From Dehalococcoidales bacterium (GTDB lineage: Bacteria; Chloroflexota; Dehalococcoidia; E44-bin15): a stretch of 38,066 nucleotides of DNA. The notes under the pieces were generated by a model. The model was not told the origin of the DNA, ran no database searches, and saw only the letters and a program-made list of their open reading frames with translations. Positions 6,185 to 26,325 of this stretch are shown in pieces; within the stretch, counting starts at the first letter, position 1; the number at the start of each line of letters is the position of its first letter. Location: contig JAUWZB010000001.1 in the NCBI GenBank assembly GCA_030615555.1, positions 1 to 38,066 of the forward strand, written 5' to 3'. Made by a program: the position numbers and the translations under genes.

Positions 6185-6970
6185 ATGGGAACCAAGGCTT
6201 ACTTCATGATCAAAACGGCGAGGGAGGCTGGTGGCGAGGGCTATGAAGAGGCGCTAAAGGCGCTGGAGGCAATGCCTGAGGTAGAGTCCATTGAGTCTGT
6301 CTCCGGGGATTATGATCATGTGGCCCGGATACATGCCCCGAAAAGCGTGGTTTCCGTGGCCAACAAGATCCTGGAAAACGAATGGATCAAGCATCTCGAG
6401 GTTTTCAAGGTGGAGACCGATGAACCCAATCCTTTCTTGGAGGAGGTCTGCGCTATCCCGGCTGGCGAGAGTATTCGCTCGTGTGCCCAATGCGGGATGT
6501 GCTCCGCCTCTTGTCCCAATATAGATAAAATGGATTATTCGCCACGAAAGATCATTGCCTTGATCCGGGCGGGGAGGCGCCATGAGGCATTGAGCAGCAA
6601 CACCATGTGGGTTTGTGCCTCCTGTTACCTTTGCACGGTGCGCTGCCCCAACGATGTCAAGATAACCGAGATGATGCACGCCCTCGAATGCTTGGCGGTA
6701 GATCGCGACTTAGCCTCCAGCAGAACAGCCACGCCCACGATGTACCAGCTTTTCGTTGACTCCATCAAGAAAAATGGGCGCGTTCATGAGCTGGGATTCA
6801 TGATCAGATTCTACTTGAAAACGAATCCCTTTGCTGCTATTAAGATGGCCCCCGTGGCGCTCCAGCTACTGCGTCATGGACGCATGCCCCTTAGAGCGCG
6901 GAAGATAAAAGGAACCGACCAAATCAAAGCCATTCTTGACCGGGCTCAGGTTTTGGGAGGTGCCCGATGA
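6185..6970 (+). CDS. hdrC: heterodisulfide reductase subunit C-like protein with an N-terminal RAM-like domain
   Basis: aa 1-85 form a third RAM-like copy (MGTKAYFMIKT...MPEVESIESVSGDYDHVARIHAP...WIKHLEVFKVE). Two CxxCxxCxxxCP motifs follow (CAQCGMCSASCP and CASCYLCTVRCP), as in HdrC. The gene overlaps hdrB by 4 nt. Confidence 0.8.
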   Translation: MGTKAYFMIKTAREAGGEGYEEALKALEAMPEVESIESVSGDYDHVARIHAPKSVVSVANKILENEWIKHLEVFKVETDEPNPFLEEVCAIPAGESIRSCAQCGMCSASCPNIDKMDYSPRKIIALIRAGRRHEALSSNTMWVCASCYLCTVRCPNDVKITEMMHALECLAVDRDLASSRTATPTMYQLFVDSIKKNGRVHELGFMIRFYLKTNPFAAIKMAPVALQLLRHGRMPLRARKIKGTDQIKAILDRAQVLGGAR

Positions 6971-7848
6971 GGTACTATCCTTTCTTCCCCGGTTGCTCTT
7001 TAGGGGCTACAGCAGTGGCCTATGGCGATTCAGTAAAAGCTGTAGCTGGCCCGTTAGAGATGGAGTTGATCGAACTGGAGGACTGGAATTGCTGTGGCTC
7101 CACGCCCTACGGCTCCACCGATGAACCGGAGGCGGTTTGCATTGCGGCCCGCAATCTGGCGCTGGCGGAGAAAACTGGCCTCGACCTCGTGACTCCGTGT
7201 AGCGCCTGCTATACCACCTTGCAAAATGCGAACCACAATATCCAGACGTATCCTGACCTGAAGGATCGGGTAAATGACGCGTTGGGTGCTGCCGGACTGG
7301 AGTATGGAGGAAAAGTCAGGGTGAGGCACCTTGCCGAGGTTATCTTCACCGACATCGGGCTTGAGGCCATTGAGTCCAAGGTGGTGAACAAACTCACCGG
7401 GTTGAAGGTTGCCCCCTACTATGGCTGCCAACTGGTAAGGCCCCATAGGGGCTTCGATGATCCGGAGCATCCCCAGACACTGGATCGCCTGATCACGAGC
7501 CTGGGTGCCGAGGCTGTTCCTTTCCCGCTGAAAAGCCGCTGCTGCGGGGGCTCCTTGATCATACCAGAGCCTAACCTGGCCTTAGGTTTGATTCACCAGA
7601 TTTTGGATAGCGCCACCGCAAACGGGGCGGAGTGCATTATTACTCCCTGTCCCCTTTGCCAGACAAACCTAGATGCCTACCAGGGCATGGTGAATGCCAG
7701 GTTCAAAACCAGATATGAAATTCCGATTCTGTTCTTCACCCAGCTCATTGGTCTGGCCTTCGGCATCGACCCTAAAGCACTGGGCTTGGATAAAGGAGCG
7801 GTCTCAGCAAAAAGGGTGCTTGACCCATATTTAGCTGTAGCCAAATAG
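6967..7848 (+). CDS. hdrB: heterodisulfide reductase subunit B
   Basis: 293 aa. The N-terminus YYPFFPGCS and two CCG-domain signatures (NCCGS and RCCGGS...CPLCQ) are present. Confidence 0.9.
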   Translation: MRYYPFFPGCSLGATAVAYGDSVKAVAGPLEMELIELEDWNCCGSTPYGSTDEPEAVCIAARNLALAEKTGLDLVTPCSACYTTLQNANHNIQTYPDLKDRVNDALGAAGLEYGGKVRVRHLAEVIFTDIGLEAIESKVVNKLTGLKVAPYYGCQLVRPHRGFDDPEHPQTLDRLITSLGAEAVPFPLKSRCCGGSLIIPEPNLALGLIHQILDSATANGAECIITPCPLCQTNLDAYQGMVNARFKTRYEIPILFFTQLIGLAFGIDPKALGLDKGAVSAKRVLDPYLAVAK

Positions 7849-7857
7849 GAGGCTTCT

Positions 7858-10800
7858 ATGGAAAAGAAAATCGGCGTCTATATCTGCCACTGCGGAAGCA
7901 ACATTGCGGGCACGGTGGATGTGGAGGAGGTAACTAGGTTTGCCCAGGGATTGGGTTCGGTGGTAGTGGCACGCGACTACAAGTACATGTGTGCCGACAC
8001 GGGGCAGAACCTTATCAAAAATGATATCCAGGAGCTGGAGCTTAACCGGGTTGTTGTTGCTTCCTGCTCTCCCCGGATGCACGAACCTACCTTCAGGCAC
8101 GCGTGCCAGGATGCAGGGCTGAACCAGTACCTCTTCGAGATGGCTAACATCCGGGAGCATTGCTCCTGGGTAACCGAAGACCGCCAGGCGGCCACGGAGA
8201 AGGCCAAGGCTCTGGTGAGTGCGGCGGTGCGCCGCGTTTCGCTTCATGAGCCATTGGAGACCAGGGAGGTTCCCGTCAATCCCAATACCCTGGTCGTGGG
8301 AGGGGGGATCGCCGGGATCCAGGCGGCGTTGGAGATCGCAGCCTCCGGTCACCAGGTTTACTTTGTGGAGCGGGAGCCATCTATCGGGGGGCACATGGCC
8401 CAGCTGGATAAGACCTTCCCCACCCTGGATTGCTCTGCCTGCATCCTCACCCCCAAGATGAGCCAGGTGGGGCAGCACCCCAATATCGAGCTCTTCAGCT
8501 ACAGCGATGTGGTAGAGGTCTCAGGCTATGTGGGCAACTTCAAGGTTAAGGTCAGAAAAAAGGCAAGGTATGTGGATGTTGATAAATGCACCGGTTGTTC
8601 GGAGTGCGAAAAGGTATGTCCTGTTGAGGTGCCCTCTGAATTCGACCTTGGATTGAGCCATAAGAAGGCGGTATACCGGCCTTTCCCTCAGGCTGTTCCC
8701 AATGCTTTCACCATTGACAAACGAGGCTATCCACCCTGCCGGGTTGCCTGTCCCGCCGGGGTCAATGCCCAAGGGTATATAGCTCTTATCTCACAGGGCA
8801 AGTTCAAGGAGGCACTTGAGGTGCTTAGAAGAACTATGCCTTTTGCTGGGGTCTGTGGGCGGGTTTGCACCCATCCCTGTGAGATAGATTGCGAACGGGG
8901 CAAGGTTGATGAGCCTATAGCCGTCCGCTCTCTAAAGCGCTTCATGGCTGACTATGAGTTGAGGGTAGGGAGAGAAAAGGTATCCCCCATCGAAAAGACA
9001 AAAGAAGACAAAGTGGCCATCATTGGCTCTGGGCCAGCGGGCTTAGCCTGTGCTTATGACCTGGTTAGGGAAGGATACCCGGTTACTGTTTTCGAGGCTG
9101 CTCCCCAGAGTGGTGGACTATTGCGCTATGGTATCCCTGAATACAGACTGCCCAAGGAAGTATTGGACAACGAAATCAGCTACATTGAAGAGCTGGGGGT
9201 GGAGATAAAGATGAATACACCGGCGAGAAATCTGGAGGATATCTTCAATCAGGGCTATAAAGCTGTCTTCTTGGCAACTGGCGCTGGGACAAGCCAGAAG
9301 ATGGGTATTCCTAATGAAGACACCAAGGGGGTAATCCATGCCCTTGACTTCCTGAAGCAGGTAATTTCAGGGGAAAAAGTCAGCCTGGGTAATCGAGTAG
9401 CCGTTATCGGCGGTGGCAACGCTGCCATAGATGCGGCTAGAGTGGCTCGTCGCCTCGGGGTAAAGGAGGTTTCAATCGTTTATCGCCGCTCTCGAGCCGA
9501 AATGCCTGCTGTCAAGACCGAGGTCGATGAAGCGGAGCGGGAGGGGGTGAGAATTAACATCCTAGCAGCACCGGTTAGTATCCTAACCGAAAATGAGCGG
9601 CTAGTTGGCATCCAATGTATTCGGATGGAGTTAGGAGAGCCTGATGCTAGTGGTCGCCGACGGCCGGTACCTATTAAGGGCTCAGAATTCAATATGGATG
9701 TTGATAATGTAATCATCGCCATAGGTCAGGCAGTGGATAAAGCCATGCTGCCCGAGGAGCTTGAATATGCTGATTGGGGAACCCTCTCCGTCGACCCTGT
9801 CACCTTACAGACAAATATTGAAGGTGTTTTTGCTGGCGGTGATGTAGTCTCTGGTCCGGCTGATGTTATCGCTACTATTGCTGCCGGGAGGGAAGCAGCC
9901 ACCTCTATAGAGCGTTACCTTAGTGGAGTGGACCTGAAAGACGGAAGACCAACACCGATTAAAAGAGTGAGAGAGGTGTCAAAGGAAAGGGTAGAGACGA
10001 GGGCAAGAGCGGCTATGCCAGCTCTTGAACTGAAGGAGCGAGAAGGTTTTGCTGAGGTTGAGCTCGGCTTTGACGAGAAGATGGCCATTGAGGAAGCTAA
10101 GCGCTGTTTGAGCTGTGCCGTGTGCTCAGAGTGCATGGAGTGCATTAAGGCTTGTGAAGCTGGAGCAATTAGTCATGAAATGGAAGACGAATATGAAGAG
10201 ATTGAAATCGGTAATATAATCGTAGCTACTGGCTATGATGCCTTTGACCCATCTGCGCTGCGCCACTATGGCTATGGGGAGCTTGATAATGTCATTACCG
10301 GTCTTGAGTTTGAGAGAATGGTCAATGCTTCAGGGCCAACCGAGGGCAGGATTGTATTGAATGGCGGCTCAGAACCAAAGACTATTGGTATTATTCACTG
10401 TGTGGGAAGTCGAGATACGAAATACCACAAGTATTGCTCGCAGGTGTGCTGTATGTATTCCATGAAATTCGGCCACCTGGTACGAGAACATGTCCCAGGG
10501 GCTAAAGTCTATGAATTCTATATTGACCTCAGGGCGGTGGGCAAGGCTTTCGAGGAGTTCTATAACCGCGTGCTGGATGAGGGGACCGTCTTTGTGCGGG
10601 GTCGCCCCAGCGAAGTGATCGCGGATGATGGCAGACTGGTTGTCCAGGTTGAAGATACCCTGGCTGATTGTGAGCGCCGTGTCCCTGTAGATATGGTGAT
10701 ACTGAGCACAGCTCTTGAGGCAAGATCAGATGCCGAGGAGGTTGCTAGGCTATTCTCCGTGAGCCGGAGCGCCGATGGCTTCTTCCTGGAGAAACACCCC

Positions 10801-11181
10801 AAGCTTGACCCAGTAGCTACTGCCACCGATGGCATATATGTCGTCGGTTGTTGCCAGTCACCTAAGGACATTCCTCAGAGCGTGGCTCAGGCTTCAGCGG
10901 CTGCGGCAAGGGTCTTAGCCATGATCGAGAAGGGCGAGATTGAGCTCGAGGCTGCTAGTTGTGTTATCGATGAGGAGCTTTGCTCCGGGTGCAAGACCTG
11001 TAACAACCTCTGCCCCTATAATGCCATCTCCTTTGATGAGGAGCGTAAGATGTCCCGCATAAACGAGGCATTGTGCAAAGGCTGTGGTGCCTGTGCTGCC
11101 GCTTGCCCTAGCGGTGCCATTGCCGCAAGGCATTTCACCTCAGAGCAGATCATGGCTGAGATTGAAGGGGTGCTAGTATGA
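7858..11181 (+). CDS. hdrA: HdrA-type flavoprotein with an inserted GltD/NfnB-like NAD(P)H-binding module (HdrL-like architecture)
   Basis: 1107 aa. HdrA hallmarks are IGVYICHCGSNIAG, the FAD site VVGGGIAGIQAALE, CTGCSECEKVCP, CSQVCCMYS, VVGCCQSPKDIPQS and the C-terminal CSGCKTCNNLCP / CKGCGACAAACP. aa ~290-745 resemble the glutamate synthase small subunit or NfnB (CPAGVNAQGY..., GVCGRVCTHPCE, KVAIIGSGPAGLACAYDL, RVAVIGGGNAAIDAAR, FAGGD). Confidence 0.9.
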   Translation: MEKKIGVYICHCGSNIAGTVDVEEVTRFAQGLGSVVVARDYKYMCADTGQNLIKNDIQELELNRVVVASCSPRMHEPTFRHACQDAGLNQYLFEMANIREHCSWVTEDRQAATEKAKALVSAAVRRVSLHEPLETREVPVNPNTLVVGGGIAGIQAALEIAASGHQVYFVEREPSIGGHMAQLDKTFPTLDCSACILTPKMSQVGQHPNIELFSYSDVVEVSGYVGNFKVKVRKKARYVDVDKCTGCSECEKVCPVEVPSEFDLGLSHKKAVYRPFPQAVPNAFTIDKRGYPPCRVACPAGVNAQGYIALISQGKFKEALEVLRRTMPFAGVCGRVCTHPCEIDCERGKVDEPIAVRSLKRFMADYELRVGREKVSPIEKTKEDKVAIIGSGPAGLACAYDLVREGYPVTVFEAAPQSGGLLRYGIPEYRLPKEVLDNEISYIEELGVEIKMNTPARNLEDIFNQGYKAVFLATGAGTSQKMGIPNEDTKGVIHALDFLKQVISGEKVSLGNRVAVIGGGNAAIDAARVARRLGVKEVSIVYRRSRAEMPAVKTEVDEAEREGVRINILAAPVSILTENERLVGIQCIRMELGEPDASGRRRPVPIKGSEFNMDVDNVIIAIGQAVDKAMLPEELEYADWGTLSVDPVTLQTNIEGVFAGGDVVSGPADVIATIAAGREAATSIERYLSGVDLKDGRPTPIKRVREVSKERVETRARAAMPALELKEREGFAEVELGFDEKMAIEEAKRCLSCAVCSECMECIKACEAGAISHEMEDEYEEIEIGNIIVATGYDAFDPSALRHYGYGELDNVITGLEFERMVNASGPTEGRIVLNGGSEPKTIGIIHCVGSRDTKYHKYCSQVCCMYSMKFGHLVREHVPGAKVYEFYIDLRAVGKAFEEFYNRVLDEGTVFVRGRPSEVIADDGRLVVQVEDTLADCERRVPVDMVILSTALEARSDAEEVARLFSVSRSADGFFLEKHPKLDPVATATDGIYVVGCCQSPKDIPQSVAQASAAAARVLAMIEKGEIELEAASCVIDEELCSGCKTCNNLCPYNAISFDEERKMSRINEALCKGCGACAAACPSGAIAARHFTSEQIMAEIEGVLV

Positions 11182-11218
11182 GCTTCCTGCCATCGAAGAA
11201 CCTTAAAGAGGAGGCAGA

Positions 11219-11746: not shown

Positions 11747-11765
11747 CATTGCCCTGAAAAGCCTG

Positions 11766-12893: not shown

Positions 12894-12895
12894 GA

Positions 12896-14845
12896 ATGGG
12901 CATTGTCTTCACCGTGCGAGAAAAATGTAAAGGGTGTTATGCTTGTATTCGTAGTTGCCCATGCAAGGCAATCAGGGTGGAGCAGGGCTTAGCACAGGTG
13001 ATGAAGGAACGCTGCATCGCCTGCGGCACCTGTCTTCAGGTGTGCGCCACAGGGGCAAAGCAGGTGGAGAGCGACCTAGGAGTGGTTTGGCAATTATTGG
13101 CACAATATCCTAATGTAATCGCTATCCTTTCCTCCTCCTTTCCGGCTGCCCTGCCCGAGATTCGCCCTGGACAGCTTGTAACTGCCCTAAAAAGGCTAGG
13201 ATTTAGTGAGGTTATGGCGGACTCCTTTGGTGCTGAGCTTGTCGGCCGAGAGTATGCCCAGCTTCTAAGTAAAGACAAAGATAGGCCTATCCTTTCGTCT
13301 AACTGCCCAGCGGCAGTAACCTACATTGAGAAATACCATATCCCGCTAATCAGTTATCTGGCACCTATCGTTTCGCCTATGATTGCCATGGGTAGAGTGG
13401 TCAAATGGCAGTATAATCCGGAGGCTAAGGTAGTCTTTATTGGTCCTTGCGTAGCCAAGAAGGCTGAGAGCAAAGACGAAAAGGTTGCTGGAGTCATAGA
13501 TGCTGTGCTGAGCTTTGCTGAGTTGAAGGAGATGTTCGCTGCCAAGGGGATTACTCCTGAATCTGAGGAAGGGGGGCAATTCTCAGGTCCCAAACCCTAC
13601 CTTGGTCGCCTGTTTGCCATATCAGGGGGGTTACTTAAAGTAATGGGACTCTCCGATGATATTCTACAAAACGATGTCATCAGCGCCCATGGTAGGGATT
13701 ATGTGGTCAAAATCCTTCGGGAATTTGTTCGAGGCGACATCACTGCCAGATTTGTCAACCTACATTTCTGCCACGGGTGCATTGATGGACCAGTTATTGA
13801 CAATGAGCTAAGTGGCTTTAGGCGCAAGGAACTCATCGCCAATTATACTACGGGTAGGGCAGACCCAGTTCAAACTGAGAGGGATATCCAAGAGTATGCC
13901 AGTATTAACCTCAGCCGCAAATTTACCAGTCAAAGTATTGGACTAGCTACTCCCAGCGATAAAGATGTCCAAAGTGTCTTGAAACAGATGAATAGGGCAA
14001 ACCCTGAAGAGCAGTTCAACTGTGGTGCCTGTGGCTATAGCTCCTGCTGGGAGTTGGCGGTCGCTGTCTGTCAGGGCTTGGCTGAGACTGATATGTGCTG
14101 GCCATATGTCCTTAACAGGTTGAAGGCTACCCAAGAAGAGCTAATACAGGCAGAGAAGCTGACTTCTCTAGGCCAGATGGCAGCCTCTATTGCCCACGAG
14201 GTCAATAATCCCTTGTCCGGGGTTTTGGTCTACACCAAACTATTATCAAAAAAGTTAGATAGCGACACCTTCTCTAAACAAGAAGCCCTGGGCTACCTGT
14301 CGAAAATGGACTCAGAGGTCAGCCGTAGCTCGAAGATAATCCGCAATCTTTTGGATTTCGCCCGCCAGTCGGAGCCAGTGTTGAGGGCAGTGGATGTCAA
14401 CCAGGTTATCGAGCAAGCCCTCTCGCTGGTCAGCCATCAGGCCCAACTGCAAAACATCGAGGTAGTAAAAGAGCTAAGCCCCTCCTTGCCCAAGGTGATG
14501 GCCGATTTCGATCAGTTGCAGCAGGTTTTCACCAATCTCATCCTGAACGCGATTCAGGCTATGCCCGATGGGGGGAGGTTGACCCTCCGCACCTCGGTGG
14601 ATAGCGATGGTCAACTCAAAGTAGACATTCAGGATACCGGCTGCGGCATTTCCAGAGAGAATTTGCGAAGGCTCTTCACCCCCTTCTTTACCACCAAAGA
14701 GAAGGGGAAAGGCGTTGGCTTAGGATTGGCTGTGGTCCACGGGATCATCCAGAGGCACCAGGGAAGGATCGAAGTGCAAAGCGAGGTGGGGGAGGGAACC
14801 ACCTTCACCATCTACTTAGGAGCTCACTATGAAGAAGAGGCCTAA
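12896..14845 (+). CDS. [FeFe]-hydrogenase-like (HydS-type) sensory domain fused to a histidine kinase
   Basis: Two ferredoxin motifs are present (CKGCYACIRSCP and CIACGTCLQVC). H-domain motifs are SSNCP, GPCVAKKAE and FCHGC. An additional CGACGYSSC-x16-C motif follows, then HisKA (SIAHEVNNPL) and HATPase_c (NLILNAIQAM, DTGCGI, GKGVGLGLAV). The start lies 3 nt after the rpoN stop. Confidence 0.8.
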   Translation: MGIVFTVREKCKGCYACIRSCPCKAIRVEQGLAQVMKERCIACGTCLQVCATGAKQVESDLGVVWQLLAQYPNVIAILSSSFPAALPEIRPGQLVTALKRLGFSEVMADSFGAELVGREYAQLLSKDKDRPILSSNCPAAVTYIEKYHIPLISYLAPIVSPMIAMGRVVKWQYNPEAKVVFIGPCVAKKAESKDEKVAGVIDAVLSFAELKEMFAAKGITPESEEGGQFSGPKPYLGRLFAISGGLLKVMGLSDDILQNDVISAHGRDYVVKILREFVRGDITARFVNLHFCHGCIDGPVIDNELSGFRRKELIANYTTGRADPVQTERDIQEYASINLSRKFTSQSIGLATPSDKDVQSVLKQMNRANPEEQFNCGACGYSSCWELAVAVCQGLAETDMCWPYVLNRLKATQEELIQAEKLTSLGQMAASIAHEVNNPLSGVLVYTKLLSKKLDSDTFSKQEALGYLSKMDSEVSRSSKIIRNLLDFARQSEPVLRAVDVNQVIEQALSLVSHQAQLQNIEVVKELSPSLPKVMADFDQLQQVFTNLILNAIQAMPDGGRLTLRTSVDSDGQLKVDIQDTGCGISRENLRRLFTPFFTTKEKGKGVGLGLAVVHGIIQRHQGRIEVQSEVGEGTTFTIYLGAHYEEEA

Positions 14846-16193
14846 AATCCTTGTTGTTGATGATGAAGCTGTTATGCGCGAATCGCTTCATGATTGGCTA
14901 AGCGATGCTGGCTACCAGGTGTTCACTGCGGAAAATGGCCCACAAGCCCTAGAGATTATCGAAAAAGAGAACCTTGGAATTGTCATCGCCGATCTGGTGA
15001 TGCCAGGGATGGACGGGATCGAGTTGATGAAGCAGGCCAGGGAGATCCTTCCCAACATCCAGGTGATCATCATTACCGCCTATGGAAGCATCCCCACCGC
15101 TATTGCTGCCATGAAGGAAGGAGCCTATGACTATATCGAGAAGCCCTTCTGCCCCGAGAGAGTGGAATCGCTGCTCGAGAGGTTGGTTGAGCATCAAGGG
15201 CTAATTGAGGAGAACCTTTCCCTGCGCCAGAGATTAGAGGATCGCTACCGCTTTGAGAATATCATCGCTAAAAGCCCTGAGATGCAGCGGGTGATTGAGG
15301 TGATCAAGGTCGTGGCCAGGAGCAACGCCACCGTATTAATCACGGGCGACAGCGGCACCGGAAAGGAGCTAGTGGCGCGAGCCATCCACTCCCAGAGCCA
15401 TCGCCGGGACAAGCCCTTTGTTGCCGTCAGCTGCGCTGCCTTGCCCGAGAGTCTCCTGGAGAGCGAGTTGTTCGGTCACGAGAAGGGTTCCTTCACCGGG
15501 GCTTATGCTCAAAAGAAGGGGAAATTCGAGTTCGCCAACCGGGGGACACTCTTCTTGGATGAGATCGGCGAGATGAGTGCCAACATTCAAGTCCATCTGT
15601 TGAGAGTCTTGGAAGAAAAGGCATTCACCAGGGTTGGTGGCAACGAGGAGATCAAGGTAGATGTGAGGATTATCTCAGCCACCAACAAGGACCTGAAAAA
15701 GGCAGTAGCCAGGGGGGAATTCCGGGAAGACCTTTATTACCGGCTCAATGTGGTTACCATCGACTTGCCTCCATTGAGGGAAAGAAGGGAGGACATTCCG
15801 CTCTTAGCTGAGCACTTCTTGAACAAATTTGCCCTAGAGAATCAGAAAGAGGTTGCCGGGTTCTCCCCCGAGGCGAGGGAGTTTCTGTTGCGTTATGACT
15901 GGCCAGGAAACGTCCGTGAGTTGGAAAACGCTATCGAAAGGGCGGTTATCCTGGCCAAAAATTCTTTAATTGAGGTTGCCGACCTACCTGACCAAAGCTG
16001 GTCGTTGGCCCGTTCGGCTTTGCAGGGGAAAAGCCTTAAAGAGATGGAGAAGAACCATATCCTGAATGTGCTCTCTGAAACTGGGGGGAATTATAGCCAA
16101 GCGGCCAGGATCTTGGGGATTAGCAGAATGACGCTCTATAATAAAGCGCGGGAGTATGGGTTAGATGTAAAGAAAATAGACAACGCTGGCTAA
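14829..16193 (+). CDS. sigma-54-dependent response regulator (NtrC family: REC, AAA+, Fis-type HTH)
   Basis: REC shows ILVVDDE...IADLVMPGMDG. The AAA+ domain shows Walker A GDSGTGKE, GSFTGA (a GAFTGA variant) and LFLDEIGE. The C-terminal HTH is NYSQAARILGISRMTLYNK. It overlaps the kinase gene by 17 nt. Confidence 0.9.
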   Translation: MKKRPKILVVDDEAVMRESLHDWLSDAGYQVFTAENGPQALEIIEKENLGIVIADLVMPGMDGIELMKQAREILPNIQVIIITAYGSIPTAIAAMKEGAYDYIEKPFCPERVESLLERLVEHQGLIEENLSLRQRLEDRYRFENIIAKSPEMQRVIEVIKVVARSNATVLITGDSGTGKELVARAIHSQSHRRDKPFVAVSCAALPESLLESELFGHEKGSFTGAYAQKKGKFEFANRGTLFLDEIGEMSANIQVHLLRVLEEKAFTRVGGNEEIKVDVRIISATNKDLKKAVARGEFREDLYYRLNVVTIDLPPLRERREDIPLLAEHFLNKFALENQKEVAGFSPEAREFLLRYDWPGNVRELENAIERAVILAKNSLIEVADLPDQSWSLARSALQGKSLKEMEKNHILNVLSETGGNYSQAARILGISRMTLYNKAREYGLDVKKIDNAG

Positions 16194-16254: not shown

Positions 16255-16287
16255 GGCTATCCAGAGGTTTCAGGGTAGTCTTTTTTT
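16255..16287 (+). terminator. intrinsic terminator after the ntrC-like gene
   Basis: The stem GGCTATCC / GGGTAGTC has 8 bp including two G-U pairs. It has a 10-nt loop and is followed by seven T. Confidence 0.5.
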
Positions 16288-16302
16288 GGCAGGAAAATTG
16301 CA
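16287..16302 (+). promoter_or_regulatory. sigma-54 (-24/-12) promoter TGGCAG-GAAAA-TTGCA
   Basis: It matches the consensus TGGCAC-N5-TTGCW at 10 of the 11 specified positions and has the exact GG-N10-GC spacing. It lies 84 nt upstream of the ATG at 16386 and directly downstream of a sigma-54 activator gene. Confidence 0.7.
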
Positions 16303-16385: not shown

Positions 16386-17390
16386 ATGAAACCGGTGCTA
16401 ATCGTTGAGGATGAAGCCATCATGCGAGAGTCGCTCAGAGACTGGCTTAAGGATGAGGGCTACGAGGTAGAAACAGCCGAGCAAGGGGAAGAAGCTTTAC
16501 ACAGGATCGGTGAGGTGGACTTTGGTGTTGTGGTGCTCGACCTGAGATTGCCGGGAAAGGACGGGCTTGAGGTGTTGAAGGAGGCGATGGCACAAAGGCC
16601 ACAGCTCAAGGGGATCATCATTACCGCTTATCCATCGGTGGAGACAGCAGTGGAGGCGATGAAACTCGGGGCAGTTGATTACGTAGTTAAGCCCTTCGCC
16701 CCTGATGCTCTGGAAAAATTGATCCGGGAGACCCTTGGAGCTGTTCAGGTGGAGATAAGGCCTAAGACTGCTACTGAGGAGATAGTGGGAGCTCCCGCAG
16801 TTGAGGAGGCCAAGGTTGAGGAAGCCATAGCCATAACCGAGGAGGAAATCCCCACCCACCTCCAGCAAGGCAAGGATCACTTCAAGGCAGGCCGCTATGG
16901 GGAGGCAGTGAAGGAATTCGAGGCCATCCTCAACCTCGCCCCAGGGCACATCGAGACTCGGACTCTGATTCGAAAGGCGAAGGAAGAGCTGGCGAGGCCG
17001 AGGATTGAGGTGCCTGAAGGGGAGGCTGCTCTTGAGGAAGCGGTCAAGCCCAAGGAGTGTGTCTGGATGAAGCTGGGGGTGGTCTCCTATCGGCTTTGCA
17101 CCCAGGACTACGATTGCCTCAACTGCGAGTTTGACCAGATGATGCAAGAGCGGATGGCTAAGGGGGAGGCCCCGGAGATCGAAGAGGCTCTGGAGAGATT
17201 TAAGGAACTACCCGGCAACCAGAGGCTTTGTCGTTACGCTCTCAAGGGCGATGTCAACTACCGGCTTTGCACCAGCCTCTTTCAATGTGCCACATGTGAA
17301 TTTGGTCAAATGATGGACGATGCTCTCCAGCGAAAGCTGGATAAGCTAGCTACCCGACGGGAAGCATTACGCAAAAAGTCTCATCTTTAA
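16386..17390 (+). CDS. orphan receiver protein with a TPR-like segment and two C-terminal Cx12Cx5Cx2C modules
   Basis: REC shows VLIVEDE...VLDLRLPGKDG...KPF. A TPR-like segment is GKDHFKAGRYGEAVKEFEAILNLAPGH. The repeats are CVWMKLGVVSYRLCTQDYDCLNCEFDQMM and CRYALKGDVNYRLCTSLFQCATCEFGQMM. ATG 16386 with AAGGAGG 8 nt upstream is preferred. ATG 16323 and ATG 16332 are alternatives. Confidence 0.8.
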   Translation: MKPVLIVEDEAIMRESLRDWLKDEGYEVETAEQGEEALHRIGEVDFGVVVLDLRLPGKDGLEVLKEAMAQRPQLKGIIITAYPSVETAVEAMKLGAVDYVVKPFAPDALEKLIRETLGAVQVEIRPKTATEEIVGAPAVEEAKVEEAIAITEEEIPTHLQQGKDHFKAGRYGEAVKEFEAILNLAPGHIETRTLIRKAKEELARPRIEVPEGEAALEEAVKPKECVWMKLGVVSYRLCTQDYDCLNCEFDQMMQERMAKGEAPEIEEALERFKELPGNQRLCRYALKGDVNYRLCTSLFQCATCEFGQMMDDALQRKLDKLATRREALRKKSHL

Positions 17391-17479: not shown

Positions 17480-18904
17480 TTAGCTCCTTAATCTCCGATA
17501 AATATTTCCCGCTGAATCGTAGACACTTATTTCCAAAGGCATCTGACCTAGGGAGTGTGTAGCGCAAGAGAGACATGGGTCATAGCAGCGAATAGCAACC
17601 TCAACCCGATTAAGTATCCCTTCAGTAACCTTGCCGGCTTTGATAAATTCCTTAGCTACCTCATAGACAGCGCGATTCATTGCTAAATTATTATGACCAG
17701 TAGCTACAATTAGGTTGACCTTGCGAATCATACCGCTTGTATCTATCCAATAATGGTGGAAAAGGGTTCCCCGAGGGGCTTCAACTACTCCCACCGCCTC
17801 TTCATTGAGCTTGGTGGAGGTGACCCATATTTCCGTGGAGCAGATGAGATCATCCTGCAGGAGTGACTTTATCCTTTCCGCGGCATGCAGTGCCTCGATC
17901 ATTCGGGCATAGTGGTAGTATAATGATCCTTCTACTACCCCCTTGCCCATCAGTTTCTTGAAGTTCTGAAACTCCTTATTGGCCAGGGGGGTGGCAATGC
18001 CATCGGCGATATTCAATCTGGCCAGCGGTCCCACGCGGTAAATGCCTGCGGGATAACCCTTCTTTTTATAATAGGGGAACTTGAGGTAAGACCAGTCCTC
18101 CACCTTTTCTTCAATGATGGAGAGGTAATCCTCGGGAGCAATCTTATCCTCCCGAATAATCCCTTTATCATCTTTCAATCTGAGCTTCCCATCATAAAGC
18201 TCCAGGTTGCCGTTATCATCGACTAGTCCGAGATAGCCAGTGGGAAAGTTGGCAAAGCGGGCAGACTCCTCGCTATGCTGGTCATAGTACCCCTTGATCA
18301 GGTCTATGGCGATTTGAACATCGGCGATCATCCCGTCTAGCTGTCCGAGGAATTCCTCGCGTTTCTCCGGGGAAAGGGCCTTATTCATCCCTCCCGGGAT
18401 GGCAGCATTGGGATGAACCCTCTTATCCCCAAGCTCCTCGATTATCTTCAGGCCAAAAGCGCGCAGTCCTACTCCCTTTTTGGCGAGCTCGGGGTTTTTC
18501 GCAATAACCCCCATAACGTTTCGGATGGCGGGGTCAGCATCCATGCCGAAGAGCAGATCAGGGCTGGCCAGATGAAAAAAGTGCAGCGAGTGAGACTGAA
18601 GATACTGGGCCATGTGCATTAACTGGCGCAGCATCTTTGCTGTAGGGGTCAGCTCCACCCCCAGGAGAGCATCCCCAGCCTTGGCTGAGGCGAGGTGGTG
18701 GCTTACAGGACAAATACCACAGATTCGGCTGGTGATGACCGGCATCTCCCAGAAAAGCCGCCCCTCGCAAAACTTCTCAAATCCCCGCACCTGGGTCACA
18801 TGAAACCTGGCCTGAGCTACATTTCCGCTATCGTCAAGATGAATAGTTACCTTTCCATGCCCCTCAAGGCGGGTAACTGGCTCAATTATGATTTTCCTGG
18901 TCAT
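17480..18904 (-). CDS. hoxH: [NiFe] hydrogenase large subunit, group 3 (Hox-like by context)
   Basis: RLEGHGKV, the N-terminal ligand pair [10 protein letters not shown] and the C-terminal pair DPCLSCATH are present. A 24-aa tail follows the His and is the expected substrate of a maturation endopeptidase. Confidence 0.9.
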
Positions 18905-18916
18905 TCAATAGCCTCC

Positions 18917-19456
18917 TCAATCAAACCTCATCATCTCGCTCGGGAGCACTGGAATTCTGCCCTCCAGAAGTTCGGTCAGGGCATAGTGAATAGCTTTAGA
19001 GCTAGGGGGGCACCCCGGAACATAACAATCAACTTTAACCACCTGGTTTACCGGCTTAACCTGCTCTAAGAGCTGGGGGAGGTCTTCTGAGGATGGGACT
19101 TTACCGTCTTTGGTGCTCTCGGTCTCAAGATAATATCTGCGAAAAACCTCTTCTTTGCTGAAAAGGTTGCGCATGGTGCATATCCCCCCAAAGCAAGCGC
19201 AATCGCCCCACACCATCAGTATTTTGCAGTTGGCACGCAATTCCTTGGCTACTTCTTCATCGTGGGTGTTGCCTATTGCCCCTTCAATAATCCCAACATC
19301 GACAGGTGAAAACTCTTTAATGTCGGTTATGGGACTGGCGGTGATTTCAATTGCATCTGCCAGACCGATAAGCGCCTCATCTAAATCCAGAAAAGACATA
19401 TGGCATCCAGCGCAACAGTCTAACCATGCTGTAGCGACCTTAACCTTTGCCACCAT
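18917..19456 (-). CDS. hoxY: [NiFe] hydrogenase small subunit (HoxY / NuoB-like, proximal cluster only)
   Basis: 179 aa. WLDCCAGCHMSF, GDCACFGG and VPGCPP supply the four-Cys set of the proximal [4Fe-4S] cluster. The short length is typical of group 3 small subunits. Confidence 0.85.
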   Translation of the reverse strand: MVAKVKVATAWLDCCAGCHMSFLDLDEALIGLADAIEITASPITDIKEFSPVDVGIIEGAIGNTHDEEVAKELRANCKILMVWGDCACFGGICTMRNLFSKEEVFRRYYLETESTKDGKVPSSEDLPQLLEQVKPVNQVVKVDCYVPGCPPSSKAIHYALTELLEGRIPVLPSEMMRFD

Positions 19457-19463
19457 TAACCTC

Positions 19464-21437
19464 CTAGCTTGGCCTTAATTCGTGCCCTAGCTTTTTGGAA
19501 AGCTCGATCAATATCTCCTGGTCCTGAAGCAGACCATCTTTGGGTTGAAGCACTCGTTTTAATTCGAGAAGGCGGCCATCCATGCTCATATATTTGCCTT
19601 CCCTCTCTGCCCAGATGGGAGAGGGCAGAACTACATCAGCTATGGCTGTAGCAGGTGAGTGATAGCTTGCGTGCACCACCAGGAAATCGATTCCTTTAAG
19701 CCAGTCCAATAGCTCCTCGTCCTCCTGTTCATCGCCAAGGAGAAGGTAGAGCCCTTTCAGCCCATCCCGCTTTATCTCTCCTGCCGCGAGACCCAGCTCC
19801 CAGCCACCGCGGCTATTGGCAGCGGGTTTGAGCGAGATGACCCTTAGCCTACCGCCCGCCTGATTTCCTGTTAAATCAGCCAAATTGAGCAGGGAGGTAA
19901 CAATGCTTGGATCGTTCCGCTGCACCAATCCTTCTCCGTAGATGATTACGCCACGCTTAGCTTGACCGTACATCTCTGCTGCCAACTCCAAGCTCTCCCT
20001 CTCTATGCCTGTGGCTCTGTTTACCTCGCCTGTCTTATACTGGCTCAGAGATTGGACAGGCTCTGCGGTTACCTTTTCCCGCGCGACCAGGCCCTTATCA
20101 ATAATGATCTTGGCTAGGCCATTAAGAAGAACCCCTTCACTACCTGCCACGGGTTTAAGCCAGAGGTCGGTCCACAGAGGGAAAACATCCTGCGATGAAT
20201 CTACCACTATCAACTTTGCTCCCTTTTGGCTTACTGCTCGCTGCACGAGAGTGCCAATGATGGGATGGGTCTTCTTGGGATCGGCCCCTGCTATAAGAAT
20301 GCAATCTGCATCTAGTATCTCTTCAATGGGGCACTCGATGTCCAATCCCTTTCCGCCATTTTGAAGCTGGCTAACACCCTCGGCGATTATCCGATAGCTC
20401 CTTCCGCCCAGGGTATCGATGGAATCGCTGCCGATCACCTCACGGATAAATTTATAAAACAAGGAAAGTGTTTCATTTGGGAGTCTTGCGGACATTATGC
20501 CAGCAAAGCCATCCTTTAACCCGCTCACTCTCCCGGCAATGACCTCCGCTGCCTTATCCCAAGTACATTCTTCAAGCTTGCCTTGCTTGCCTCGCACCAA
20601 GGGAGAGGTGACCCGGGGACGAGTTTCGAGAAGCAACTCAAAACGCCCCATGCTGCACAGTGGCCCTCTTAGCTCCGTTAACCTTGGCGCTTCAATCCTC
20701 ACGATGTTATTGTCTTTCACCAGTACATTCAGTTCACAGCCAACTCCGCAAGCAGAACAAACAGTCGTTATCTGCTGGCAGTCGCTTGTGCTACCCTTAT
20801 AAAGACTGAGCTTGCTGAAAATAGCACCTGTGGGACATGCCTGCACACAAGCACCGCAGGAGGTGCAGGATGATTCGCCCACTGGTTGCTCCAAGTCGGC
20901 AGACACCAGCGTTCTCCAGCCACGTCTACTGAAATCCAGAGTATAGTTTGCCGCTATCTCACTACACGCCCGAATGCACCTGCCACAAAGGATGCAACGG
21001 TTATGGTCAATCACCAGGTAATCACTTAATGGATCCACAGGCAAAGAGGGAAAGGTATAGGGGTAGCGCACATTGTCCATCTGATATCGGTAGGCCAGTT
21101 TTTGTAGCTCACAGTCTCCGCTCTGCTCGCAGAACATGCAGAAATGATTGCGCTCGGTGAAGATGAGTTCCAATATCTGGCGGCGATATTTCTCCAGCTC
21201 CTCAGTGTGGGTTTTCACCACCAGTCCATCCCTGGTGGGGTAGGTGCAGGAAGGAACTGGCCTCCTCTCCCCCTCGATCTCCACCACACACATTCGGCAG
21301 GCTCCCACGTCACTTAATCCCTCCAGGTGACAGAGCGTAGGCACATCGATGCCATTAGCCTGACAGATTTCAAGAACGGTATCCCCTTCCCTCCCTTTAA
21401 CTTGCTGATCATTGATTGTCAAAGTTATCTCTTTCAT
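19464..21437 (-). CDS. NuoG/HoxU-like Fe-S subunit carrying a degenerate, non-catalytic molybdopterin-oxidoreductase domain
   Basis: Motifs are the N-terminal [2Fe-2S] site (CHLEG..GACRMC..C), HFCMFCEQSGDCELQ, CILCGRCIRAC, CTSCGACVQACPTGA and CSACGVGCEL. At the FDH active-site position it reads IDTLGGRSY, where the paralog upstream has IDHCARLCH. The C-terminal dinucleotide-binding barrel appears to be missing. Confidence 0.8.
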   Translation of the reverse strand: MKEITLTINDQQVKGREGDTVLEICQANGIDVPTLCHLEGLSDVGACRMCVVEIEGERRPVPSCTYPTRDGLVVKTHTEELEKYRRQILELIFTERNHFCMFCEQSGDCELQKLAYRYQMDNVRYPYTFPSLPVDPLSDYLVIDHNRCILCGRCIRACSEIAANYTLDFSRRGWRTLVSADLEQPVGESSCTSCGACVQACPTGAIFSKLSLYKGSTSDCQQITTVCSACGVGCELNVLVKDNNIVRIEAPRLTELRGPLCSMGRFELLLETRPRVTSPLVRGKQGKLEECTWDKAAEVIAGRVSGLKDGFAGIMSARLPNETLSLFYKFIREVIGSDSIDTLGGRSYRIIAEGVSQLQNGGKGLDIECPIEEILDADCILIAGADPKKTHPIIGTLVQRAVSQKGAKLIVVDSSQDVFPLWTDLWLKPVAGSEGVLLNGLAKIIIDKGLVAREKVTAEPVQSLSQYKTGEVNRATGIERESLELAAEMYGQAKRGVIIYGEGLVQRNDPSIVTSLLNLADLTGNQAGGRLRVISLKPAANSRGGWELGLAAGEIKRDGLKGLYLLLGDEQEDEELLDWLKGIDFLVVHASYHSPATAIADVVLPSPIWAEREGKYMSMDGRLLELKRVLQPKDGLLQDQEILIELSKKLGHELRPS

Positions 21438-21452
21438 CGTGTTAACCCTCTC

Positions 21453-24128: not shown

Positions 24129-24147
24129 GTATTATCACCTCATTTAT

Positions 24148-26325
24148 TTAAGTCGGTGCACCGGCTCGAAGCGGACAAATGGTATGATAGGAGAGAGTCT
24201 TTTGGCAGATACCAGCCGGGCAGCGTCTATCAAGGATGTGTGCCTCAAAGTGGTCGCGGAAATGCTCTAGGGTGAACAGGACTATATCCGGGGCAGTTTT
24301 GCCAACGGGGCATTCCGAAGCCACTCTCATGGTGTCACCGAGCTCGAAGAGCAGATCGAGCATCTCGAGCTTGCCCCTGCCGGTGGCGATGTCATCCAGG
24401 AGGCTCACCATCTGGGCTATGCCCAAACGGCAGGGCGGGCATTTGGTGCAGGACTTGTTTTGGGCCGGAACAGTCATCGAGAAGCGGGCAAGCTCGACGG
24501 CGCAGACCGAGGTCTGTAGTTTAGTGACAAGGCGCTCAGGGACAAGCTCGGGGAGCGCTGCGCTGAGTGCCTCATAGCCGCCAGCATCATAGCCGGCGAC
24601 AGCCTCAAGACAAGGCAGGCACTTGTCCTCCAGGGCGTGATAAGCTACCAGCGCCTTACAAACCCCGGCAGGGCACCTTTTATCGATGATATGAGACTCA
24701 TACTCCTCCCGAAAATGGCGAAGGGTGGTTAGCACCGGATTGGGGGAGGTCTGACCCAGGCCGCATAGAGAAGCCGAGGCAACCATCTCCCCTAACTCTG
24801 CCAAGATATCGAGGTCCTCCATCGTCCCCTCACCCCGGCTGATCTTGGTCAGGATCGCCAGCATTGCGGGGATCCCAGCCCGGCAGGGTACACATTTACC
24901 GCAGGCCTCGTCCCTGGTGAAGCCGAGGAAGTATTTAGCCACATCCACCATGCAGCTATCCTCATCCATCACAACAAGCCCGCCAGAGCCCATAATAGCC
25001 CCGAGCGCAGTAACCGCTTCGTAATCGACCGGCACATCTATATGTTGAGCCGGGATAACACCCCCCGATGGCCCTCCTATCTGCACTGCCTTGTATTTCT
25101 TGCCATCGGGTATGCCACCGCCGATGTCGAAGACTATCTGTCCCAGTGGTGTCCCCAGGGGAACCTCGACCAGGCCAGTGTTGTTTATCTTGCCCACGAG
25201 GCACAGGGTTTTTGTGCCCTTGCTTCCCTCCGTGCCGACGCTTGCGAACCAATCAGCCCCCCGCACAATGATCTGCGGGACATCCGACCAGGTCTCTACG
25301 TTATTGAGGGTGGTCGGCTGGCCAAAAAGCCCCTTATTGGCTGGGAAGGGTGGCCTCTGCCTGGGATTTCCCCTCTTTCCTTCGATAGAGCCCAAGAGGG
25401 CTGTTTCCTCGCCACAGACAAAGGCTCCGGCACCGGGGAAGATGTCAAGGGAGAACTCGAAACCAGTGCCCAGGATGTTCTTGCCCAGAAAGCCATATTC
25501 CCGCGCCTGAGCTATGGCGTGGCTTAAGGTCTCGATGGCAAGGGGATATTCAGCCCGAATATAGGCATAGCCCTGGCGCACATTGCCTATGGCGTAGGCC
25601 CCGATTACCATACCTTCAATTATCGAATGGGGGTTGCCCTCAAGAACAGCCCGGTTCATGTAAGCACCTGGGTCACCCTCGTCCCCATTACAAACTACGT
25701 ATTTCTCCTCCCCTGGTGAGCTACGGACAAAGCCCCACTTTCTAGCTGTGGGGAAGCCTGCGCCTCCCCGCCCCCGCAATCCCGCCTTACCGACCTCCTC
25801 AATAACCTCCTCAGGCCTCATCCCGGTCAAAACCTTGGCCAGGGCTTGATAGCCATCTCTGGCAATATACTCCTCGATATTCGTCGGGTCGAGGTCCTGG
25901 TTATGCATTACCCTGATCTCTTGAAGCTTAAGCAAGGGGACAGCCTCATCCAGAGTCCATTCCCCAACCACCTTTCCCCCTACAAGGTGCTGCTCCACGA
26001 TCTGGGGAACCTTGTCCTCGGTGACATCGGTGTAAATCACCCTCTTCTGCCCTGGGGTGATAACCGTGACCACCGGCTCCACACCGCACAATCCGATGCA
26101 GGCTGCCCTGAGTATAACGACATCGGATAGCTTGCGGGCTTCAACCTCCCGGAGAAAGGCTTCCAGGACCTTATTTGCCCCTGAAGAAATGCCACATGTC
26201 CCCAGGTGAACCTTAACCTGGATCTTCTCTCCTCGTTCCGCCAGCTTCCTTCGAGCTTGCTCCCTCAAATTCTGCAGCTCTTCTACAGACGCAAGTGGCT
26301 TCACTTCACACTCTTCCTTATTCAT
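24148..26325 (-). CDS. hoxF: NuoF/HoxF-like NAD(P)H-FMN subunit with an N-terminal thioredoxin-like [2Fe-2S] domain and a duplicated C-terminal [4Fe-4S] module
   Basis: Motifs are GRGGAGFPTARKW, CNGDEGDPGAYMNR and CGKCVPCR...LCGLG. N-terminal motifs are HLGTCGISSG...AACIGLCGVEP. A second CTKCPPCR...ECPVGK module lies C-terminal. It overlaps the upstream nuoE-like gene by 8 nt. Confidence 0.9.
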   Translation of the reverse strand: MNKEECEVKPLASVEELQNLREQARRKLAERGEKIQVKVHLGTCGISSGANKVLEAFLREVEARKLSDVVILRAACIGLCGVEPVVTVITPGQKRVIYTDVTEDKVPQIVEQHLVGGKVVGEWTLDEAVPLLKLQEIRVMHNQDLDPTNIEEYIARDGYQALAKVLTGMRPEEVIEEVGKAGLRGRGGAGFPTARKWGFVRSSPGEEKYVVCNGDEGDPGAYMNRAVLEGNPHSIIEGMVIGAYAIGNVRQGYAYIRAEYPLAIETLSHAIAQAREYGFLGKNILGTGFEFSLDIFPGAGAFVCGEETALLGSIEGKRGNPRQRPPFPANKGLFGQPTTLNNVETWSDVPQIIVRGADWFASVGTEGSKGTKTLCLVGKINNTGLVEVPLGTPLGQIVFDIGGGIPDGKKYKAVQIGGPSGGVIPAQHIDVPVDYEAVTALGAIMGSGGLVVMDEDSCMVDVAKYFLGFTRDEACGKCVPCRAGIPAMLAILTKISRGEGTMEDLDILAELGEMVASASLCGLGQTSPNPVLTTLRHFREEYESHIIDKRCPAGVCKALVAYHALEDKCLPCLEAVAGYDAGGYEALSAALPELVPERLVTKLQTSVCAVELARFSMTVPAQNKSCTKCPPCRLGIAQMVSLLDDIATGRGKLEMLDLLFELGDTMRVASECPVGKTAPDIVLFTLEHFRDHFEAHILDRRCPAGICQKTLSYHTICPLRAGAPT

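Follow-up and report, generated by a model that had tools for sequence, protein, structure and literature searches.

The window analyzed here is a 38,066-nucleotide stretch from a Dehalococcoidales bacterium (contig JAUWZB010000001.1, positions 1 to 38,066, forward strand), in which a gene at 12,896-14,845 encodes a histidine kinase whose N-terminal half is an iron-sulfur (Fe-S) module resembling [FeFe] hydrogenases. We read this kinase as a probable H2 sensor with an H-cluster and give this reading a probability of about 0.55. It is based on motifs that match the published definition of sensory Group C/D hydrogenases, an AlphaFold2 (AF2) fold, the conservation of the hydrogenase-like domain (H-domain), maturase-linked relatives with the same Cx2C motif, synteny, a tree, the output domains fused to related modules, and a sigma-54 promoter. 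The preliminary description of the gene, made from the sequence alone, had also taken it for a sensor rather than a catalyst, which agrees with the Group C/D definition, with the intact fused kinase, and with the kinase, sigma-54, GGDEF, and methyl-accepting chemotaxis protein (MCP) outputs of its relatives.

Putative sensory [FeFe] hydrogenases are placed in Group C (M2f, TmHydS) and Group D (M2e, TamHydS) (Land et al., PMC8163306; Schumann et al., PMC13104023). The definition of both calls for two [4Fe-4S] motifs at the N-terminus, a Cx2Cx4Cx16C motif at the C-terminus, and an H-domain that lacks C299 together with the proton pathway and has other residues at M353 and M497; Group C proteins have a PAS domain in addition (PMC8163306; PMC13104023). 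The window protein has the N-terminal motifs, all four H-cluster cysteines, replacements at C299, M353, and M497 (N136, G183, and F291, respectively), and the Cx2Cx4Cx16C motif (CGACGYSSC-x16-C, residues 376-401). A kinase is fused to it in place of the PAS domain, which was found in 8 of 66 relatives with the same Cx2C motif. These correspondences come from aligning the protein with HMMER to [FeFe] hydrogenases of known structure (HydA of HydABC, HydA2 of the hydrogen-dependent CO2 reductase HDCR, DdH, and CpI). The four H-cluster cysteines align to ligand cysteines of these enzymes, the last two being spaced by two residues and not three, and HFCH-GCIDG of the P3 motif aligns to MACPGGCMSG with a single-residue deletion; the same alignments pair SPMI with SPQQ, SGGLL with TGGVME, and SSSFP with APAVR. 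All motifs and coordinates listed in the preliminary description agree with the translation of the open reading frame (ORF) and with the homologue alignment, and the canonical motifs that it used for comparison (Cx3C and a GGGQ tail) are indeed those of the solved enzymes.

The protein has over 120 full-length homologues (70-95% identical), and those with names come from metagenome-assembled genomes (MAGs) of Dehalococcoidia/Dehalococcoidales; its exact sequence matched no record, and a 95%-identical protein, P0001, stood in for it in record look-ups. Conservation within this family was counted over 121 aligned close homologues. C185, C292, and C295 are invariant, and C137 is replaced once, by Tyr (120/121). 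The relay position, 136, is Asn in 89 sequences, Thr in 21, Ser in 5, and His in 3, and Cys in none. S160 and E191 are invariant, P161 is nearly so, K188 is present in 118/121 and G183 in 119/121, and P3 always reads FC[HE]GCIDGP, with the Cx2C spacing unchanged throughout. The eight cysteines of the N-terminal ferredoxin domain are kept in 115-121 sequences and all four of the Cx2Cx4Cx16C motif in every one. Mean identity to the window protein is 78.6% in the H-domain versus 72-75% in the kinase core; the H-domain is thus conserved at least as well as the kinase core, or slightly better. A true catalytic hydrogenase with an incidental kinase is hardly credible. The low H2 turnover that Group C/D enzymes keep in vitro (PMC8163306) would speak for it, but the relay Cys is lacking from the whole family, M353 and M497 are replaced, no electron-transfer partner subunit specific to the protein was seen, both the kinase and the regulator paired with it are complete, with translational coupling between their genes, and the activities of characterized relatives are orders of magnitude below those of catalytic enzymes (PMC6984386).

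The kinase half shows every feature of the HisKA family, namely the H-box His and the N, G1, F, and G2 boxes. H434, E435, N437, N438, and P439 of the H-box (SIAHEVNNP, residues 431-439) are invariant in the homologue alignment, as are N547, N551, D580, G582, G584, F597, F598, and G606-G610 of the other boxes. The best match of the kinase core in the PDB is ZraS (E = 4.5e-46), and AtoS scores 246 bits. Pfam detected no PAS, GAF, or membrane segment in the 649-residue protein (PAS up to E 0.1), and the C-terminal Fe-S domain runs directly into HisKA/HATPase_c, with HisKA starting at residue 425. For the sensor half (residues 1-410), an AF2 model built on a diverse 90-sequence alignment reached a mean predicted local distance difference test score (pLDDT) of 92.6 and a predicted TM-score (pTM) of 0.91, with about 87-91 in the P3 segment; it superseded a full-length AF2 model built with 45 close homologues, in which pLDDT was 69.6 and the P3 loop and ferredoxin domain fell below 50. 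A Foldseek search of the PDB with the sensor model returned [FeFe] hydrogenases as all of the best 50 matches (query TM-score, TMq, 0.64-0.75), so the [FeFe]-hydrogenase fold is confidently predicted, and the kinase half of the predicted structure matches ZraS and HK853. A helix is predicted from residue 402, just after the last cluster cysteine (C401), toward the dimerization and histidine phosphotransfer (DHp) helix that bears H434.

To place the shortened P3 motif in context, residues 1-410 were searched against 1.84 billion representatives (50%-identity clusters), which gave 812 clusters at E <1e-30; the complete sensor module is present in all of the best 150. P3 is of the Cx2C type in 86 of these 150 (median length 671 residues; Cys at the relay position in none) and of the Cx3C type in 58 (median 575 residues; CCP in eleven). 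Outputs differ between the types: by Pfam, 66 Cx2C proteins comprised 38 with HATPase_c/HisKA, 14 with a sigma-54 AAA+ activator domain, 5 with GGDEF, 3 with MCP, and 8 with PAS domains, whereas nearly all of 54 Cx3C proteins had PAS only. A profile of the Cx2C sensor module retrieved more than 6000 proteins, the best 120 being nearly all kinase fusions of about 670 residues, with names from KSB1, Aminicenantes, Calditrichaeota, Armatimonadota, and Chloroflexota; the newly returned matches had Cx2C in 118 of 118 cases. The Cx2C form is not a private defect but a widespread form of P3 among sensor modules of many phyla. Both types share the GP tail and the Gly at the M353 position, which are likewise traits of the sensory clade as a whole. 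The loss of the Gly-rich P3 tail noted in the preliminary description is real, but it is a general trait of the clade and not peculiar to this protein.

In a neighbor-joining (NJ) tree rooted on catalytic HydA proteins from related loci, which sit on a long branch, all sensor modules form one clade. The Dehalococcoidia family is monophyletic within it (100/100 bootstraps) and lies inside the radiation of Cx2C sensor kinases, next to maturase-linked bacterial kinases; the Nar1/NARF-like grouping that the preliminary description had weighed against an H2 sensor did not emerge among the bacterial sequences compared. Resolution inside this radiation is low, and we claim no clean Cx2C clade because two Cx3C sequences nest within the Cx2C set. 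Scans of GTDB and metagenomes, which matched peptides of the kinase H-box, returned 160 loci, mostly of unrelated kinases, about 25 having the sensor module. Loci are numbered here with the prefix L. One locus, L086, has two tandem Cx2C sensor kinases (6340-12049) beside complex-I/group-4-like [NiFe] genes.

The gene neighborhoods of these relatives bear on whether the domain holds a [2Fe] subcluster. In two Clostridia-labelled MAGs (L010 and L011), hydG, hydE, and hydF lie directly upstream of a Cx2C kinase 47% identical to the window protein, and their products score above the NCBIfam equivalog cutoffs (HydG, 533 versus 312 bits; HydE, 397 versus 255; HydF, 517 versus 326). The order there is HdrA/GltD, [NiFe] small and large subunits, maturation protease, HydG, HydE, HydF, kinase, NtrC-type activator, response regulator, NuoE, NuoF. 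An Aminicenantes-labelled locus (L170) has the same arrangement with hydGEF beside the kinase, and L170 and L010 share the synteny HdrA/GltD - MvhD - NiFeS - NiFeL - HycI - hydGEF - kinase - NtrC. A delta-proteobacterial MAG (L013) has hydG, an aspartate ammonia-lyase gene, hydF, the Cx2C kinase, one further gene, and hydE, in this order, and a closed Armatimonadota genome (L084) has hydE and hydF upstream of its Cx2C kinase. The kinase is the sole H-domain ORF within 10 kb in L010, L011, and L084. Five other loci (L085, L090, L092, L097, and L098) have the Cx2C kinase gene immediately after an operon for a NuoE-NuoF-HydA bifurcating hydrogenase (HydABC). Because Cx2C kinases elsewhere adjoin hydG-hydE-hydF or follow HydABC, the Cx2C variant as a type most likely receives a [2Fe] subcluster, and we infer that the H-domain of the window family carries one too.

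Two genes in these loci are of interest in their own right. The NuoG-like protein encoded after NuoE and NuoF in L170 (16783-18066) and L010 (16762-18045) has a glycine-cleavage H-protein domain (PF01597); aminomethyl-lipoyl H-protein is named as a recently recognized participant in H-cluster maturation (PMC12752695). The aspartate ammonia-lyase gene of L013 (7225-8700; NF008909, 607 bits) stands between hydG and hydF, near the sensor kinase, a placement that fits the role in synthesis of the dithiomethylamine ligand reported for ammonia-lyases (PMC11736057).

Several observations weigh against a [2Fe] subcluster in the window family, and most of them favor a different sensor, in which the H-domain would keep only the [4Fe-4S]H cubane on C137, C185, C292, and C295 and the protein, with three accessory clusters, would report the reduction state of ferredoxin or NAD(P)H, or electrons from Hdr/Mvh. 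CxxC is a usual spacing between two cysteines that ligate the same cubane. The preliminary description had found no hydE, hydF, or hydG in the window, and both Pfam searches of all large ORFs and tblastn with HydE and HydF of a related locus agree; moreover, 14 family loci (L001-L005, L007-L009, L017, L087, L088, and L167-L169) have no hydEFG closer than 10 kb to the gene. In L167, whose kinase is 79% identical to the window protein, one same-strand array reads HdrC-HdrB-HdrA/GltD-MvhD-NiFeS-NiFeL-HycI-sigma54-kinase-NtrC-RR, so that a sigma-54 gene fills the slot that hydGEF takes in L170. Two second-sphere positions have also changed in the family: the APSF conserved in maturase-linked kinases has become SSSF (residues 79-82, aligned to A230-P231-S232 of CpI), and their FP(I/V)SGGLL has become FAISGGLL. 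One family member, in L009, has a degenerate H-domain but a retained kinase. The literature searched yielded no biochemically characterized Cx2C-type H-domain. For the H2-sensing route itself, there is the further difficulty that H2 does not reduce TamHydS's C-terminal cluster (PMC13104023), which makes the relay step through this cluster uncertain.

A [2Fe]-less redox sensor stays the main rival because of the lack of nearby maturases, the SSSF and FA changes, and the loss in L009, yet we consider it unlikely. The closest Cx2C relatives outside the family, in the same kind of neighborhood, have hydGEF beside the kinase. S160, P161, K188, E191, and G245 are invariant or nearly so and have no obvious role around a bare cubane; they align to the cyanide-contacting SP and to the K358/E361 positions. 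Absence within 10 kb, moreover, says little for a 2-Mb genome. The doubt that the preliminary description raised about the [2Fe] subcluster, on account of the altered P3, still applies to the Dehalococcoidales family, in which no maturase was seen near the gene, but is largely answered for the clade, in which several Cx2C kinases are maturase-linked. No Dehalococcoidia name appears among the best 120 of more than 7700 matches to HydF of L010, and the literature search gave nothing relevant on hydEFG in Dehalococcoidia or on fusions of H-domains to kinases or to sigma-54 components.

The L009 protein (7923-9869; Chloroflexota, 63% identical overall) keeps a kinase half 74% identical to that of the window protein. 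Its H-domain has NLCFHEGC for NLHFCHGC (C292 to His), Gly for E191, and SESPP for SGGLL; either the cluster site has decayed or the assembly is in error.

The features of the window that bear on the kinase and its neighbors are collected in Table 1.

Table 1. Annotated features of the kinase locus (window coordinates; residues are those of the kinase unless stated otherwise).
Feature	Position	Strand	Basis
HdrC-like, HdrB-like, and HdrA2/GltD-fusion (1107 aa) genes	6185..11181	+	Pfam matches
Short sigma-54-like factor, 375 aa	11766..12893	+	Sigma54_DBD; stop 2 nt before kinase start
H-domain histidine kinase gene, 649 aa	12896..14845	+	Listed ORF; Pfam architecture
Ferredoxin-like N-terminal domain, residues 7-54, two CxxCxxCxxxC motifs (C11/14/17/21, C40/43/46/50)	12914..13057	+	Fer4_10, Fer4, Fer4_7 matches
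H-domain, residues 74-299, [FeFe]-hydrogenase large-subunit fold	13115..13792	+	PF02906 (Fe_hyd_lg_C), E = 2e-45, profile 3-245/245
P1 SSNCP, residues 134-138; ligand C137 kept, relay Cys replaced by N136	13295..13309	+	Aligned to TSCCP
P2 GPCVAKKAE, residues 183-191; C185, K188, E191 kept; G183 at M353 position	13442..13468	+	Aligned to MPCxAKKxE
P3 HFCHGCIDGP, residues 290-299; C292-x2-C295, GP tail	13763..13792	+	One residue short of Cx3C
C-terminal Fe-S domain, residues 373-402, Cx2Cx4Cx16C (C376/379/384/401)	14012..14101	+	PF04060
HisKA/DHp domain, residues 425-492, phospho-acceptor H434	14168..14371	+	PF00512
HATPase_c catalytic domain, residues 537-641; N, G1, F, G2 boxes intact	14504..14818	+	PF02518, E = 6e-29
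NtrC-type response regulator/sigma-54 activator, REC-AAA+-HTH_8	14829..16193	+	Response_reg, Sigma54_activat (E = 4.5e-76), HTH_8
Terminator-like hairpin (GGCTATCC...GGGTAGTC) then T-run, after activator gene	16255..16287	+	Sequence reading
Putative sigma-54 type -24/-12 promoter TGGCAGGAAAATTGCA; GG 16288-9, GC 16300-1	16287..16302	+	Promoter scoring
REC-TPR protein with two Cys-rich repeats, first gene 3' of promoter	16386..17390	+	Response_reg, TPR matches; start codon and ribosome-binding site conserved
Convergent operon: NuoE-like, NuoF-like, FdhA, NuoG/HoxU-like, [NiFe] small and large (VhuG/VhuA-like)	17480..26830	-	Pfam matches

The constant core of the family loci consists of a short sigma-54 gene, the kinase, an NtrC-type activator, and the REC-TPR gene, with HdrA2/GltD usually adjacent, with or without HdrBC. 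The sigma-54 gene lies upstream of the kinase in L001-L005, L007-L009, L017, L088, L167, and L168. Its product in the window has a Gln/Leu-rich N-terminus like region I, and TIGR02395 covers only its C-terminal 144 residues (89 bits versus a cutoff of 277); Sigma54_DBD was the sole sigma-54 domain found, with no match to Sigma54_CBD or AID. Every full family locus has the activator gene downstream of the kinase gene. In the window, its translation shows a GSFTGA loop and the two genes share 17 nt at the kinase stop; this overlapping, conserved gene is the candidate for the cognate regulator. Since the sigma-54 gene always accompanies the kinase-activator pair, the three suggest a self-contained sigma-54 cassette. 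In L004, an additional, sensor-less kinase gene (11976-13232), whose product is 68% identical to the kinase half, separates the sensor kinase from the activator.

Downstream of the activator gene, both arms of the hairpin have changed in L003-L005, L007, L008, and L009 in ways that preserve the stem. Directly 3' of it stands the promoter element, TTGGCA(G/A)GAAAATTGCA, with GG at -24 and GC at -12. It is the sole site in the window that scores at least 13.5 (shuffle mean 0.2), and it occurs at the same position in nine aligned loci, with TTGGC....AATTGC invariant, and also in L088 (ten loci). A leader of about 70 nt follows, then a ribosome-binding site (16373-7) and a conserved ATG at 16386, and the REC-TPR-Cys-rich gene is thus the directly supported target predicted for this promoter. 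In L007 and in L008, a locus of the closed MAG CP070842.1 with a 69%-identical orthologue of the kinase, nuoE and nuoF follow the REC-TPR gene on the same strand. The end of the REC-TPR protein (residues ~235-330 of the ORF from 16323) has two repeats of the form C-x12-C-x5-C-x2-C-E-F-x-Q-M-M (CVWMKLGVVSYRLCTQDYDCLNCEFDQMM and CRYALKGDVNYRLCTSLFQCATCEFGQMM), which match no Pfam family and may form a metal- or Fe-S-binding output domain.

No sigma-54 site above 11 was seen upstream of the hdr-like operon or of the [NiFe]/formate dehydrogenase (FDH) operon in the window. Four other loci (L005, 3643-3658; L010, 2711-2726; L011, 2652-2667; L088, 15643-15658) do have weak sigma-54-like sites upstream of Mvh-type [NiFe] small-subunit genes, at 330-540 nt. 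These distances are large, and the 3' ends of hdrA contain the sites of L010, L011, and L088; as a lead and not a finding, they could mark further targets of the cascade.

Genes of H2 and redox metabolism surround this cassette. The HdrA2/GltD fusion scores 869 bits against NCBIfam HdrA2, under the 1100-bit cutoff, in addition to its GltD-like part, and an HdrA/GltD homologue stands beside the kinase module in L001-L003, L017, L088, and L167-L169, as well as in L010, L011, and L170. In the convergent operon, FdhA scores above its NCBIfam cutoff (858 bits), and the hydrogenase subunits give VhuA/VhuG-like matches; [NiFe] hydrogenase genes recur near the family kinase in L167, and also in L088 and L005. 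This setting bears on a further alternative, a sensor of O2, CO, or NO, or of oxidative damage, acting through the H-cluster or the accessory Fe-S clusters. Such clusters, H-clusters included, react with these gases. TamHydS, for one, forms a defined O2 product (PMC8163306). We hold this alternative to be quite improbable nonetheless: across phyla the gene stays linked with genes for hydrogenase, Hdr, NuoEF, and FDH, and in relatives with HydABC, which points to H2/redox metabolism, and the neighborhood shows no recurring genes for oxidative stress or CO metabolism.

Three features of these surroundings are recorded here. First, the 95%-identical contig L001 (14500-15000) lacks a block of about 13 kb that occupies window positions 17400-30900 and holds the NuoE/NuoF/FdhA/NuoG/[NiFe] operon together with genes for a LuxR-type regulator and a GAF-PAS kinase; in L001, tilS comes directly after the REC-TPR gene, and the junction holds a 45-residue HdrA-like fragment. 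A complete hydrogenase/FDH module seems to have been gained or lost recently between strains that are nearly identical. Second, weak matches to the AsnC/Lrp ligand-binding domain occur at 5445-6970, in two small ORFs (just under the Pfam cutoff) and in the N-terminus of the HdrC-like protein (just over it), an unusual addition to an Hdr-type operon. Third, a P-loop gene resembling ATP:corrinoid adenosyltransferases of the CobA/CobO/BtuR type (11219-11746) stands between the hdrA/gltD and sigma-54 genes; it is kept there in L001 and L003 but not in the other family loci.

On the H2-sensor reading, the protein would be a soluble sensor kinase whose input consists of two accessory [4Fe-4S] clusters, the H-cluster site, and the C-terminal [4Fe-4S] cluster. 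H2 would bind at the H-cluster and be split slowly, without a catalytic proton relay; because this relay is missing, we propose that the redox or conformational state of the module tracks the H2 partial pressure without turnover. The change would be passed to the C-terminal Fe-S domain and through the helix after C401 to the DHp helix with H434, modulating autophosphorylation, and the NtrC-type activator, whose gene is translationally coupled to that of the kinase, would receive the phosphoryl group. With the short sigma-54 factor encoded upstream, the activator would fire the -24/-12 promoter of the REC-TPR-Cys-rich regulator gene and probably other promoters elsewhere, tuning the neighboring Hdr/Mvh-type [NiFe]-hydrogenase and FDH/NuoEF bifurcation genes. 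We infer H2 as the signal, the direction of kinase control, and any regulon beyond the REC-TPR gene.

Whether Group C/D proteins sense H2 at all, and by which route the signal leaves them, is still debated, and a 2026 study of TamHydS doubts a relay through the C-terminal cluster (PMC13104023). The characterized models have no measurable output because they end in a PAS domain or in nothing. A direct kinase fusion supplies such an output, with which H2 sensing could be assayed directly by autophosphorylation and phosphotransfer in vitro, and the clade that offers it is very large and spans many phyla. The adjacency of [NiFe] and Hdr genes suggests cross-talk between two hydrogenase superfamilies in subsurface Chloroflexota. 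Metagenomic surveys should leave such proteins out of their tallies of [FeFe] hydrogenases that produce or consume H2. More tentatively, and with the odds somewhat against it, one may picture an [FeFe]-type H2 sensor kinase, possibly the sole client of HydEFG in some organisms, that governs [NiFe], Hdr, NuoEF, and FDH modules through a private truncated sigma-54 factor, the Cx2C form being a large class of H-cluster environments tuned for sensing; in a radical variant of this picture, the Dehalococcoidales branch would have no [2Fe] subcluster and would be a pure Fe-S redox sensor turning NARF-like.

Among known systems, HydDB has in its table a Group C1 named 'histidine kinase-linked (putative)', beside C2, 'chemotactic', and C3, 'phosphatase-linked' (PMC5037454). 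The window protein shares with C1 the concept of a sensory H-domain signaling through a histidine kinase, here within the same polypeptide; C1 is defined by sequence-similarity clustering, and the likeness drawn here is to the table description (PMC5037454). TmHydS of Group C resembles it in the two N-terminal [4Fe-4S] motifs, the four cluster cysteines, the lack of C299, the Gly at M353, and the C-terminal Cx2Cx4Cx16C motif, but has a PAS domain, Ser at M497 (PMC8163306) where the window protein has F291, and a Group A [FeFe] hydrogenase as neighbor where the window has [NiFe] and Hdr genes. PAS-containing proteins of this kind, of about 570 residues, were recovered in the representative search as more distant relatives of the sensor module, and they have Cx3C in P3 where the window protein has Cx2C. 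The literature searched describes Group C as PAS-fused and mentions neither a direct kinase fusion nor the Cx2C variant. TamHydS of Group D lacks PAS as well, has matching N- and C-terminal cluster motifs, and has lost the proton pathway; it differs in Ser/Thr at M353 and Leu at M497, against G183 and F291, and in having no fused output domain. Membership in Group D (M2e) is ruled out by G183, which is not Ser/Thr, and by the fused kinase. Catalytic Group A was rejected as well: SSNCP, GPCVAKKAE, and HFCHGCIDGP fail TSCCP, MPCxxKxxE, and ExMxCxxxCxxGGGQP, and Group A HydA is the outgroup in the NJ tree.

More distant parallels concern the circuit or the fold. In regulatory [NiFe] hydrogenases of group 2b (HoxJ/HoxA, HupT/HupR), a non-catalytic hydrogenase senses H2 and signals through a histidine kinase to a regulator of hydrogenase genes, and HoxA is an NtrC-type regulator; the metal site and fold are unrelated, however, and sensor and kinase are separate there but one polypeptide here. 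Kinases of the NtrB/AtoS/ZraS type align with the kinase core, all catalytic boxes being present, but take their input from a periplasmic, PAS, or GAF domain and not from an Fe-S/H-cluster module. Nar1/NARF proteins are eukaryotic H-domain homologues in Fe-S assembly that lack the relay Cys and are thought to hold Fe-S clusters only. The window protein differs from them in its two-cluster ferredoxin domain, its Group C/D C-terminal cluster, and its kinase; gene context and bacterial sensor relatives argue against a NARF-like identity, the comparison set being one of bacterial sequences. By its motifs and architecture, the window protein thus appears to be a Group-C-type sensory H-domain fused to a kinase, a kind already foreseen by HydDB, and what is new in this uncharacterized but very widespread variant is the Cx2C bridge, the absence of PAS, the linkage to [NiFe] and Hdr genes, and the private sigma-54 factor.

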